Shown: one piece after another, positions 757-61,732 of the stretch | Position numbering within the stretch: the first letter of the stretch is position 1 | How the letters are laid out: each line of letters opens with the position of its first letter | DNA from: Stegostoma tigrinum | Lineage: Eukaryota | Length of the DNA: 64,000 bases | NCBI RefSeq assembly: GCF_030684315.1 | Contig: NC_081391.1 | Span: 20,420,629 to 20,484,628 of the forward strand | Direction: 5' to 3' | The notes under the pieces: generated by a model | The model's database searches: none | Told to the model about the DNA's origin: nothing | Seen by the model: only the letters and a program-made list of their open reading frames with translations | Translations under genes and position numbers: made by a program

Positions 757-1155
757 AATCCAGAGCAGGATGAGTGGGGCAATGCAGAGAGCTCTGCAGA
801 TGGAGAAGGATGTGAGCCAGAGTCTGCTGGATCTGCACAAACTCGACTCTGGCCACACGGACCCTCATGTGAGTACTTCACTTTTTTGTCTGAAGGTGAT
901 AAGGCATTGGTTCTTCAGGTTAAATGTACCTATTCACCTAGCACTGAGCATTTGAAGTACAAAGCTGCTTTCTGCTCAGTGAGCTACTCGTTGCTTTGCT
1001 TTCTCCAGCTGTGTGACTTCCTGGAGAGGCACTACCTGGATGAGCAAGTGAAGATGATCAAGAAGCTGGGAGATCACATCACCAACCTGAAGAGACTGGG
1101 AGCCCCTGCCAATGGCATGGGAGAGTACCTGTTTGACAGGCTCTCACTCAGCTGA
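757..1155 (+). pseudogene. Ferritin copy 1, exons 3-4 only (5' part outside the window), frameshifted
   Basis: Exon 3 at 757-868 is 112 nt versus 126 in paralogs, a 14-nt deletion between two GGCAATG repeats. Exon 4 at 1009-1155 reads [52 protein letters not shown] intron; AATAAA at 1212-1217. Confidence 0.85.
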
Positions 1156-2404
1156 ATGGGATTTCACAATCACTTGGTCCTTGCATTCTCTTTTGCTTGT
1201 ACTGAATATGAAATAAAAATCATTGAACCAAAGCTGTCTAGCTTTCTGTAATTCTTCAGCCTAAAGCCTATCCAATATCTTCCTAAGATTGTTTTGTCCA
1301 TTCCCAACAACTTGGATGTGGTTTGCTGACCTTGGACCAGCTGGATAATGTCAACAGGGATGAGTGTCCGAAGATACTTGGATTCAGTGAGTGGACAAGC
1401 ATTTAGCTATGTATGGGGCAATTGCCCCCTTTTTGCAGCAGTGCAAGCAACAAAGTGCAGTCTCACCAAAATAGTGAGACTGCAGACCCTGTTGGAGCAG
1501 TACTGATAAATATGGACCTCAACTCTCAAAGCCAGAGGTCAATAGCACTTACGGTGTCTATTTACTTTTTGAGGAAAGCTTGACTCATCCCTCTGTTCAG
1601 AGGCTTCAAGTGAGTCTTTCCACACTTGAAGCATGTATTTAGGCTTTTTTCCTCAGCAAGTGACTTCCCTTACACTACATCTTGCAGGAAGCAAGTCTTT
1701 TTTTATTTGAAAGGCAAAGACCACTTATATCACTCACTTGTGCCTTAATTTAAAAAGATAACAGCTTCTACTCTGCAAGTCTGTTGTTAGAAGGTCAGAG
1801 GGTGGGGGTTTTTTCAACTACTGGTTAAATCTGGAGCTAGTAGGAAAGGGGAGAGATGTCCTGGTTTGTCTCAAGGTCTGTCCTTGCTCCAGTGGTAGTT
1901 AATTCATTCACTTTGGTTATCGCCACTTTTCCATGTTTCCTGATGAGGTGAGCCAGTACATCCTGATGCCAGCGCAACAGAATTGTCATACTGTAGAAGA
2001 TGGCCAATCAGACTGTCTTATTTGCACAAAGTCTCTCAGCACTTACCCTTTCTGTGAATATTCTACCTTTCCCAATAAACTGGCAAGTTGTTCCTGTTTA
2101 ATTGCCCAGTGCCTCTTGAACACTGCCAATAAACCTCCCTCTGCCACACCGAAACCAGATGGCACTAATAAAGCAAATAGACAATATTGACCAGCAGAAT
2201 TTAATCTGAGGAAGAGTACTTCAGACCAAGACACAGAAAGCAGTGTGTTCTGAAATAATGGAGAGCAAGGAGCTAAATAGGCGCAGAGTGTGTTTGGGGA
2301 TCTGCATGCAGAAATTTTTAATCTCTTGTAGAGAGGAAGGGAGATGCAATTAAAATGCTAATTGCATTTTAATGTTCATTGCAAGGCTGTGGAGCTGGAA
2401 TATA

Positions 2405-2696
2405 AATCATTGGATCCCTACAGTGTGGAACTAGGCCATTCAGCCCATACTGATCCTCTGAAGAGCATTGCACCCAGGCTAACCCCACATTTCCCCATGG
2501 CTAACCTGCTTGCTAAAGGCAACATAGCACGGCCCGTCCACCTTATGTGCACATCTTTAGACTGTGGGAAGAACCCGGAGCTCCCAGAGCGGACCCACAC
2601 AGCCCCAGGGAGAATGCACAAACGGCCACTCGAAGATGGGATTGAACCCAGGTCTGCGGCGCTCCGGGGCAGTAGTACAAATCACCGAGCCACCAG
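2405..2696 (-). mobile_element. tRNA-derived V-SINE (HE1-like)
   Basis: The minus strand begins TGGTGGCTCGGTG (A-box-like) and has GGGTTCAATCCC (B box), followed by a V-domain-like core and a CR1-type tail (GGGCTGAATGGCC). Boundaries approximate. Confidence 0.7.
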
Positions 2697-58833: not shown

Positions 58834-59807
58834 CTTCACTATTCCTGCTCACTATCACCTGGACAAGTCTTCAACTGAGCCTCACCAGCACAAGCTTGTA
58901 TTTATATTCCTGGGAACATCCTGCACCAAGTCAGGGAGGAGGCATCACCAATGATTGACAATGCCAGCTAACCAATCAAATCATCCGTGCACCAATGATC
59001 TTAGAAAAAGGAATTTGGTCGGGGCAATGACAGAACAAGATGTTTGGAGGAAATTCATTCTAATGAGGTCCCTGCGTCAGATTCATACAGCTTGTGCAAA
59101 TCCCTAAATTGCCATTGTTTGAGTAGATAAGAATGGCCTTTTTCTTTATGTTACAGCTTGAAGTTTGCCCAGGACAATATCTGGTTTCGAAAAGGTTTCA
59201 GTCCTGAAACAAATGATTGTGCTCCTGAGGAGCATTTTTTGCCATAGGCACAGCAGACAGGGTGATGGATGTTCATATCAGGACCTACTGTTCGTGTGAC
59301 ACGCCAAAGCAGGCAGGAGACAGATGCCACCAATAGACACAGTCAATCCACACAAACAGAACTGGTAACTGGGGAGTGATACTTGTTTTGGTGAAACAAA
59401 AGTGATTTAAAGATGCAACGAACATCCAGCGGTCACACTGCTTTGTCCAAACTGAGGTATCATGGTTACTCAAGGGCCACCCCATTGGTCATCAGAGAGA
59501 CCAAGACAGCAGCTAATAGGCAAGGCAGCTAAACTGTGTGCAAGTATTTCAAAAGGGAAAAATGGATCACCTTGCCACAACTATTCACCATGTTAAATGT
59601 TACTTGTCATTGTCTACTTAACCCACTTGATAGTGGAGATTTTGTGCAAACTCAGAAAAACACAATGTAGCTTTGTATAGTTTATTGCCAGTTGGTACAT
59701 TTCACAATAGAGATCACATCTTATCTATTTTTAGAAGCAGAAAACTCAGCTTGTCTAGATATCTCCCATTTATACAAAAAAAACCCCAGAAGTTTGCTCC
59801 CTGCAGT

Positions 59808-61732
59808 TCAGTCACTCTCCCCCAGGGTGAGCCTGTCAAACAGGTACTCTCCCGTGCCATTGTCAGGGGCTCCCAGTCTCTTCAGGTTGGTGATGTGATC
59901 TCCCAGCTTCTTGATCATCTTCACTTGCTCATCCAGGTAGTGCCTCTCCAGGAAGTCACACAGCTGGAAAGCAAAGAAGGGAACTGGTTAAAGCCAACAA
60001 GATACAGTTTCCTCAAAAGCTTGGATTCCCATCAGTATGGACATCAAACCGTTGAGTGACATCATGGAGGTTGCCAAAAGCATTCTAGAAAGTGCTCACA
60101 TTTGGGAAACGTGAGAATTTGAGACAGGGTACACAATGTTGATTGAGATAGAGGCCAGAAAGGGCCAAGTGTCTCATCAGAAGTGTGGAGCTGGATGAAC
60201 ACAACAGGCCAAGCAGCATCTCAGGAGCACAAAAGCTGACGTTTTGTGTTTAGACCCTTCATCCTCTCTGAAGAAGAGTCTAGGCCCGAAACGTCAGCTT
60301 TTGTGCTCCTGAGATACGGCTTGGCCTGTTGTGTTCATCCAGCTTCACACTTTTGTTATCTTGGATTCTCCAGCATCTGCAGTTCCCATTATCACCAAGT
60401 GTCTTATCCATGTTTTTGGCCAAAAATCCAGATTTAAAACACACCAAATACTCACATGAGGGTCCACATGTGGAGAGGCGAGTTTGTGCAGACCCAGCAG
60501 ACTCTGGTTCACATCCTTCTGCATCTGCAGAGCTCTCTGCATTGCCTCCAGACCATTGCCCCACTCACCCTGCTCTGGCTTCTGGAGGGAGGGAAGAAGC
60601 AGATGTTGCAATAAATTGGAAAATCCACAAAGGGAAGAGGATACAAGAATGAAACAGCATTCAACACTAGTCACTGCATTATTCCAATTGTTCCAAAACA
60701 TTTAGTGCCACAAGTTGCCATAAAGCTGGATATGTATAGTTAACCCCAACCTTGATGTCCTGCAGGAGGACTCAGCCTCCACATTTATTCTGGAATGCCA
60801 ACAGTTTCTCAGCATGTTCTCACTCCTCATGGGACAGCTCCTTGAAGAACTCAAAGTGATGCAGGGCAACATTATCCTCGTCAAAGAGAGAGAACTGTAA
60901 ACAGACAAGTCATTGCTTCTATTTGAAGATGTCAACTTTCTCAGAAGGGCTTTTTCAATTTTAGAGGCTCTAGTTCCTAGAAGGGAAACACTTCCCTTAA
61001 GTCACTAAAAATCTCCACTGAACAGATCAACATCCTTTCCTTCTGCAGTAGAAGGGAAAGGAATAGATTACCTTCATACTCATGGGGTCATGAATATTAT
61101 TTCATACTTGAATCCAATTATTAATCATTATCCTCATTGTTCCTCCCAGCATATAGATAAGGGAGAAAGATTCCACCTCAGTGAGGAAACCTGCCAACAC
61201 AGGGCAGTATTCTCAGCACCTAATTTAATTCAATCAATCGAGAATGTTAACTAACAAGGCATTGGCACCAATGAGGGCTAAGGGTAGTGGTTGTGTCCCT
61301 ACCTCTGGAATAGGAGGCCCAACTCCCAAGCGACTTGCTTAAGAGGCAGGTCATATTATCTCTTGACAGGTTGATTAAGATTTATTCAAGGTAGCAAAAC
61401 CTGTTACATTGAGGAAGCAAACTATTCAGGTGACACATCAAGGACACCAGACAACAGTTTCAGTAAAATTTTTATAAACTAAAAAGTTAAAAAACTATTC
61501 ATTTCTCTCACGAACAGAATGGCTACACAAGCACATTCTTGAACATGAATTGACCAAAGCAGAAAAATCCCACCTCCTTAACATAATGTAGCCAACAGTT
61601 TTAATTCCAAAACAAATCCACTAGGCTCGCTATGGAGAGGTAAACATAGGAGGAATAGAGCTCCAGGTTGATCTGCTTGTTAACAGCATCCTCACAGTCC
61701 TTGTGATAGTTCTGACACGCTTGGGAAACCAT
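59808..61732 (-). pseudogene. Ferritin pseudogene, copy 11
   Basis: Exons 61732-61631 (donor ATA|GC), 60894-60751 (3-nt deletion; TGA at 60822-60820 and 60774-60772), 60581-60456 (E107-equivalent changed to Q), 59963-59808 (longer end DRLTLGESD*). Confidence 0.9.
60179..60394. mobile_element. Fold-back pair of PLE 3' termini in intron 3 of copy 11
   Basis: Inverted arms of about 80 bp; CTGAAGA-AGAGTCTAGGCCC-GAAACGTC on +; TSD CCAAGTGTCTCATC (60165-60178) / CCAAGTGTCTTATC (60395-60408). Confidence 0.85.

Follow-up and report, generated by a model that had tools for sequence, protein, structure and literature searches.

Ferritin subunits assemble into 24-mers that oxidize and store iron, and ordinary ferritin messages are controlled by iron-regulatory proteins (IRPs) through an iron-responsive element (IRE). 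In the Greenland shark, 155 FTL and 179 FTH1 copies have been reported, an expansion shared with the white shark, and the largest Greenland shark cluster is ovary-specific at the RNA level, according to the accessible parts of a preprint (bioRxiv 10.1101/2024.09.09.611499). The hadal snailfish carries 14 mostly tandem copies of fthl27 that are expressed in most tissues and lowered reactive oxygen species in cells, as stated in the available portions of the article (PMC10746142). Here, we examine a window of 64,000 nucleotides from Stegostoma tigrinum (contig NC_081391.1, positions 20,420,629 to 20,484,628 of the forward strand) that contains a tandem array of 11 ferritin genes. We read this locus, with moderate confidence, as a dosage-amplified, IRE-free ferritin array that probably provides an iron store for the oocyte.

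The original prediction, made from the letters of the window, had cautioned that a ferritin expansion might already be annotated. It is: at least 41 distinct ferritin proteins, some of which may be isoforms or mis-joined models, are found on one 26,869,179-bp Stegostoma contig, and the shark expansion is published, as the accessible parts of the above preprint document (10.1101/2024.09.09.611499). The expansion is hence no discovery. The literature searched, which left most subscription journals outside, yielded no publication on loss of the IRE, on conversion or on orthology in a shark cluster, and the accessible parts of PMC13720417, PMC13701976 and PMC3726666 contain nothing on a shark ferritin cluster. 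Added by the present analysis are the intact ferroxidase centers, the TATA/CCAAT promoters, the lack of a detected IRE and the signs of conversion in the Stegostoma array.

Layout of the array and its products

Searches with blastn, tblastn and exon profile hidden Markov models identified 11 ferritin genes of the four-exon type (c1 to c11) between positions 757, the first base of c1 exon 3, and 61732, the ATG of c11. Exons 1 and 2 occur ten times each, exons 3 and 4 eleven times each, and matching promoters ten times; with E-values of 1e-32 to 1e-53, chance exon matches are excluded. Six copies are intact (c2, c4, c5, c8, c9 and c10) and five are disabled (c1, c3, c6, c7 and c11), which reproduces the predicted counts for a tandem array of intron-containing copies. 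Each intact copy has a 522-nt frame of 173 codons plus stop, and all 18 introns of these copies begin with GT and end with AG.

The six intact products share 150–165 of 173 residues pairwise, i.e., they differ at 8–23 positions, with c10 standing apart at only 150–156 residues in common with the others. Numbered as in frog M ferritin, all six carry E23, Y30, E57, E58, H61, E103, Q137, D127 and E130. The ferroxidase center is thus complete in every intact copy and the acids of the threefold channel, D127 and E130, are kept; the same full catalytic motif is found in 98 of 179 aligned sequences. Lysine at position 58, the ligand loss of L chains, does not occur, as all six carry E58. In the same numbering, cavity glutamates are present at positions 53 and 57 in all six copies and at position 60 in five (lysine in c4), a trait that does not discriminate the M type because shark fth1a also carries glutamates 53, 57 and 60. 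Of the 37 variable positions, 30 show private changes only. No signal peptide was found in the products of the intact copies. Together, the intact copies are predicted to encode cytosolic ferritin subunits of one functional type. A secreted yolk ferritin was considered and ruled out, since the N-terminus is not hydrophobic and each ATG is preceded, six codons upstream, by a stop in the same frame. Assignment to the ferritin family is based on a single exon and on database relatives: PF00210 is annotated on all 120 listed matches of c4 exon 4 (the best 120 of 294), and the relative P0006, 86–93% identical to the copies where listed, matches solved ferritins at E-values around 1e-80.

One residue near the catalytic site deserves separate mention. 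Position 140 is Met in the intact copies (Ile in c10) and Asp in frog M ferritin. At codon 141, which adjoins the ferroxidase center, the intact copies thus have Met where frog M has Asp140 and H chains have Ala or Ser, and Met is also found at this codon in most aligned cluster proteins of elasmobranchs. From its location, this Met could alter ferroxidase kinetics.

The array consists of two arms, with c1 to c7 on the plus strand and c8 to c11 on the minus strand, meeting tail-to-tail at 41585/43494. On the plus strand, the intact copies are c2 (3512..6819, with the promoter from about 3512; exons 3834–3935, 5161–5307, 5479–5604 and 6673–6819), c4 (17288..19769; exons 17622–17723, 18616–18762, 19249–19374 and 19623–19769) and c5 (22252..24812; exons 22577–22678, 23492–23638, 24122–24247 and 24666–24812). 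On the minus strand they are c8 (43494..46249; exons 45921–45820, 44738–44592, 43987–43862 and 43640–43494), c9 (50274..53001; exons 52672–52571, 51157–51011, 50847–50722 and 50420–50274) and the most diverged copy, c10 (55986..59151; exons 58833–58732, 57912–57766, 57578–57453 and 56132–55986). The predicted density of one copy per 5–6 kb holds as an average (about 5.5 kb from ATG to ATG), but actual spacings range from 2.9 to 10.0 kb. As had been noted, the array runs off the left edge, where c1 is truncated; at the right end, the last 2.3 kb of the window contain no further ferritin exon. The observation that no other genes interrupt the array also appears to hold, retroelement frames aside: no other host gene is evident among 12 open frames of at least 150 amino acids, seven of which lie in one retroelement (about 31680–35260) and five elsewhere.

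An origin of the array in repeated haplotypes or reads, i.e., an assembly artifact, has a negligible probability, and nothing was found in its favor. Among the intact copies, introns vary in length and for the most part cannot be aligned, which excludes an echo of the assembly, and even the youngest pair of copies is still about 7% apart over 5.6 kb, with a retroelement and its target-site duplication in only one of the two. In addition, copy-specific intron pieces are present in the public sequencing run X1, which may itself be the source sample.

Promoters, leader and transcripts

A region of about 330 bp is common to all ten 5' ends; it contains between one and four ATTGG (CCAAT) boxes and, 73–77 nt upstream of the ATG, a TATA box that takes a variant form in c2 and c3. 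These promoters are conserved among the copies, whereas the introns are not. Transcription typically starts 25–30 nt behind a TATA box, so the leader would be about 45–50 nt long. Searches for an IRE, run without a positive control, gave no Rfam match over the whole window at E≤1 and none at E≤10 when the leader of c4 was used, and none of the six intact copies has a CAGWGH loop within 70 nt upstream of its ATG. A relic IRE was also considered: the leader loosely resembles the ends of the element, but it has no CAGUGN loop and its folds contain no shared hairpin, and we rejected this candidate.

Contigs of public runs were mapped to positions 5100–25099, a region that excludes c8 to c11, and 15 of 104 joints were inspected. 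Run X5, which bears the same species label as the DNA-like run X1, was taken as RNA solely on the basis of its intron-skipping joints. X5 contigs join sequence across predicted GT..AG introns at 5307>5479 and 5604>6673 (c2), 19374>19623 (c4) and 22678>23492 (c5), and they cover the c2 3' untranslated region (UTR; 6812–6925) with 0 differences over 114 nt. Among the joints inspected for this region, X1 has no such intron joints. From the X5 joints, the cover of the c2 3' UTR and the lack of joints in X1, we conclude that the ferritin family of the array is transcribed and spliced. Runs X15 and X16, which share species label and study with X5, gave 140 and 150 records, nearly all on repeats, and no joint at a ferritin intron. 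Since contigs show presence and neither absence nor level, the result hints at tissue restriction at most, and we do not use it as evidence. X5 contigs also lie on part of c4 intron 1 (17775–17861) with 2 differences; they perhaps represent RNA that is not yet spliced or an exon used alternatively by a paralogue.

Relatives and mode of evolution

A search with c4 exon 4 returned 294 proteins, and among the 120 listed all but six came from sharks and rays. Among 215 proteins compared, the closest, 91–98% identical to the six intact copies, belong to the carpet sharks Stegostoma, Rhincodon, Chiloscyllium and Hemiscyllium, and none matches an intact copy exactly. Protein clusters of 69, 127, 180 and 138 members each mix shark species. 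RefSeq and UniRef names such as 'ferritin heavy/middle/higher subunit-like' are automatic and inconsistent (e.g., P0124 = XP_059496719.1). The array is not part of the fth1a locus, as fth1 of Stegostoma maps to a contig of 64.4 Mb and the cluster to the 26.9-Mb contig.

For phylogenetic analysis, we built a tree of 60 sequences selected from the matches, with invertebrate outgroups, and a reduced tree from a subset of 32. The copies fall within an elasmobranch multi-copy clade (16 sequences, support 98/98 in the 60-sequence tree and 96/98 in the reduced tree) and outside the FTH1 clade in both trees (FTH1 support 100/98 and 97/97), and M genes form other branches than the copies. A group of the copies, shark chains with Lys58 and two tetrapod L chains, one of them a long branch, received support of 95/87 and 88/78, respectively. 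The approximately unbiased (AU) test does not reject a union of the copies with FTH1 (p 0.104), chondrichthyan fth1a (0.064) or the shark M-like gene (0.090). We treat this placement beside L chains as a lead and not as a result. A larger quick tree contained single-species groups of 21 Pristiophorus, 5 Heterodontus and 6 Mustelus sequences (support 86–92), as might be expected from homogenization or fast turnover.

Several further ferritins accompany the cluster in public data. The contigs of the cluster also carry another multi-copy shark subfamily, represented outside this window by P0088, P0101 and P0093 and their clusters. This subfamily has Lys58 and often Glu137, as in L chains; it groups with tetrapod L chains in the trees and is automatically named heavy or middle subunit. 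A distinct M-like gene (P0300 cluster), with one listing for most sharks, also lies on the contig of the cluster. In sharks and stingrays, cluster-type ferritins are also scattered over further large chromosomes (P0032, P0067, P0071, P0076, P0086, P0089 and the P0111 cluster); a message expressed in the germ line would be expected to give rise to retrocopies, and these ferritins could be such retrocopies. The public shark models P0001, P0018, P0019, P0099 and P0104, of 260–340 residues, repeat exons 2–3 or whole subunits and are probably neighboring copies joined by the gene predictor.

Among the intact copies of the window, synonymous divergence (dS) is 0.055–0.149 and the proportion of differences at fourfold sites is 0.079, whereas promoters differ by 18–26% and introns are unalignable in 11 of 15 pairs. 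Silent divergence therefore does not match copy age, the relation expected under birth-and-death evolution. Identity is about 0.9–1.0 in exons and falls to 0.21–0.43 beyond 10 nt outside the intron-exon edges. Furthermore, a tract of 708 bp of non-coding DNA that lies upstream of c3 (10152..10858) is about 99% identical to an inverted tract upstream of c9 (53877–53170) and to 28577–29287 upstream of c6, although the neighboring promoter flanks are 8–28% diverged. This tract probably stems from a recent conversion between the two arms of the array. Likewise, c7 and c3 differ mostly by 9–20% over their 5' half and mostly by 1–10% from exon 3 to exon 4. Alike silent sites beside unalignable introns, together with the inverted tract, point to gene conversion, which probably acts alongside birth and death; the drop at exon edges, the tract and the pattern of c7 and c3 would fit conversion at the DNA level limited by remaining homology. 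Conversion through cDNA is not favored, since no intron has been lost, the 3' UTRs have not been homogenized and the clearest tract is non-coding. The mean proportions of nonsynonymous and synonymous differences (pN/pS) are 0.038/0.089, a ratio of 0.43; purifying selection is moderate overall and weak for c10.

Death and duplication are evident in the disabled copies. On the plus strand, c3 (11025..13127; exons 11354–11455, 12169–12315, 12522–12638 and 12982–13127) has an intron-1 acceptor AA, a stop at 12304, a 9-nt deletion in exon 3 and a 1-nt deletion in exon 4. The acceptor AA, the exon-2 stop (here at 30746) and the 9-nt deletion recur in c6 (29452..31571, plus strand; exons 29781–29882, 30611–30757, 30962–31078 and 31425–31571). 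Copy c7 (39493..41585, plus strand; exons 39822–39923, 40632–40771, 40979–41095 and 41440–41585), of the same lineage, carries the acceptor AA, an intron-2 donor AT and further frameshifts. The segment with c3 (7628..17262, plus strand) is duplicated as 26044–31670 plus 35244–39340 (93%) and partly as 39333–43158 (84%). Shared lesions in duplicated segments show that a dead gene was copied twice after its death. The original prediction of birth-and-death evolution is thus borne out by five pseudogenes among 11 copies and by these duplications, but it is incomplete alone, given the low fourfold divergence beside unalignable introns and the 708-bp tract. The remaining disabled copies lie at the ends of the array. 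On the plus strand, c1 (exon 3 757–868, exon 4 1009–1155) has a 14-nt deletion in exon 3 in addition to its truncation by the window edge. On the minus strand, c11 (59808..62061; exons 61732–61631, 60894–60751, 60581–60456 and 59963–59808) has an intron-1 donor GC and exon-2 stops at 60822 and 60774. Its exon-4 end (59808–59831) is of a longer, 176-residue C-terminal type, with the other copies ending three codons sooner; both types are found across sharks.

The window also carries other sequences. A decayed retroelement (31683..35272, plus strand) is inserted roughly 110 nt downstream of the c6 stop, with a 13-bp target-site duplication; from its reverse transcriptase and endonuclease motifs we take it to be Penelope-like, and its three frames gave no Pfam match. 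Older 3' fragments of this element lie upstream of c3 and c6 (8543–9857 and 26945–28284). Lone, decayed exon-3 pieces in opposite orientation follow c3, c6 and c7 downstream (14049–14117, 36068–36138 and 42466–42561 on the minus strand); they are remnants of an older inverted copy carried in the duplications. A short interspersed repeat at 2414–2700 appears to resemble the elasmobranch HE1 family.

Proposed role and comparison with known systems

In the reading we favor, the window is one part of the extensive ferritin cluster of elasmobranchs. The intact copies each encode a 173-residue cytosolic subunit with a complete iron-oxidizing center that would assemble into ordinary 24-mer cages, and output would be set by gene number and transcription, free of the brake of an iron-regulatory protein. 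The likely purpose is to provision the embryo by loading the large, yolky oocyte with bulk iron in a safely caged form; we suggest this because the Greenland shark cluster is published as ovary-specific. Whole copies are born by segmental duplication and die, and the array would be kept uniform by purifying selection and by gene conversion confined to still-homologous exons. Of the two functions named in the original prediction, dosage amplification is supported by conserved promoters, invariant catalytic residues and spliced transcripts, and combinatorial cages find no support in the window, where the six intact copies are of one functional type.

Several observations weigh against this reading. 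Expression in the ovary or oocyte is borrowed for Stegostoma from another shark, and the preprint on that shark (bioRxiv 10.1101/2024.09.09.611499), in its accessible parts, offers ovary RNA and no oocyte protein, with the word 'iron' absent from the main text. The X5 joints have sides of 20–29 nt that paralogues outside the window could supply, and transcript support at the level of single copies exists for c2 only. The absence of an IRE comes from a search without a positive control and a deduced transcription start. Constraint is loose, with five of 11 copies dead and ratios of nonsynonymous to synonymous divergence (dN/dS) of 0.44–1.17 in pairs with c10. For conversion, the four-gamete test found 46 of 91 pairs incompatible (0.505 versus 0.497 for clonal descent), a fraction reached by 152 and a count reached by 7 of 300 simulations, and neither this test nor a neighbor-incompatibility test for recombination was significant (p 0.55); constraint on silent sites may also account for the low silent divergence.

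Among the alternatives, the array could be a by-product of an unstable, recombining locus at which a few copies suffice and copy number drifts. The dead copies, the two duplications of the c3/c6/c7 lineage after its death, the pN/pS ratio and the mostly private variable residues all fit such drift, which we nevertheless deem unlikely: catalytic residues are invariant in the intact copies, the full motif is widespread among the aligned sequences, and promoters are conserved where introns are not. A somatic antioxidant or nutritional-immunity function has a precedent in the broadly expressed fthl27 copies of the hadal snailfish and their effect on reactive oxygen species (PMC10746142, available portions). 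It appears improbable here in light of the reported ovary specificity of the largest Greenland shark cluster, and a separate shark fth1a and the M-like gene could serve somatic needs.

Selection for functionally different cages built from slightly different subunits, as originally proposed, would draw on the 8–23 residues that separate intact copies, and the L-like subfamily of the wider cluster (K58, often E137) makes heteropolymers of two types plausible. We give this explanation little credence. The changes are mostly private and spare the ferroxidase and channel residues checked, homogenization of exons works against a stable repertoire, and a combination of catalytic and L-like chains would be no more than the usual H/L principle.

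A bolder version of the dosage reading, which we offer tentatively and hold to be rather doubtful, is that the array is a catalytically intact sister of the vertebrate L chain that has lost its IRE and been amplified about a hundredfold into an oocyte-type set, parallel to the oocyte-type 5S RNA genes, that pre-loads egg iron outside IRP control. If so, sharks would keep both sides of the L-chain ferroxidase loss in one cluster and would have preserved a cytosolic route of maternal iron supply. Should the placement beside L chains hold, the label 'FTH1' would be wrong and the cluster would bear on the origin of L chains. More generally, an IRE-free and ovary-active array would offer a testable explanation of how sharks supply iron to their very large, yolky eggs, and reproduction should then be checked before shark ferritin copy number is tied to longevity or stress resistance.

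Compared with described ferritins, the array is closest in protein sequence to the RefSeq and UniRef models of carpet sharks, which have the same 173-residue form. The best solved match of P0006 is bullfrog M ferritin (PDB 1mfr and mutants), at 271–273 bits versus 256–262 for mammalian H chains; the ferroxidase ligands are held in common, and the array copies differ by Met140 (Ile in c10) in place of Asp and by a chain three residues shorter. Vertebrate FTH1/fth1a has the same ferroxidase center and the same four-exon plan, and shark fth1a is a separate gene that shares 128 of 173 residues with c8 and falls in an FTH1 clade without array copies.

The Greenland and white shark clusters, as far as the accessible parts of their description go, resemble the present locus in forming a dense multi-copy cluster, with two subfamilies in the wider cluster, that is ancient and shared between orders. 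They differ in species, in that catalytic copies are labeled FTH1, and in that those parts mention neither loss of the IRE nor conversion nor orthology. A reported identity of 90% to human chains does not fit the array copies: c8 and a macaque H chain have 117 of 173 residues in common. Like the array, fthl27 of the hadal snailfish is an intact ferritin gene tandemly amplified in a fish and read as a dosage effect in the available portions of the article (PMC10746142). In contrast to this recent, lineage-specific and broadly expressed set of 14 copies, the shark cluster is ancient, about ten times larger and, as reported, ovary-specific.

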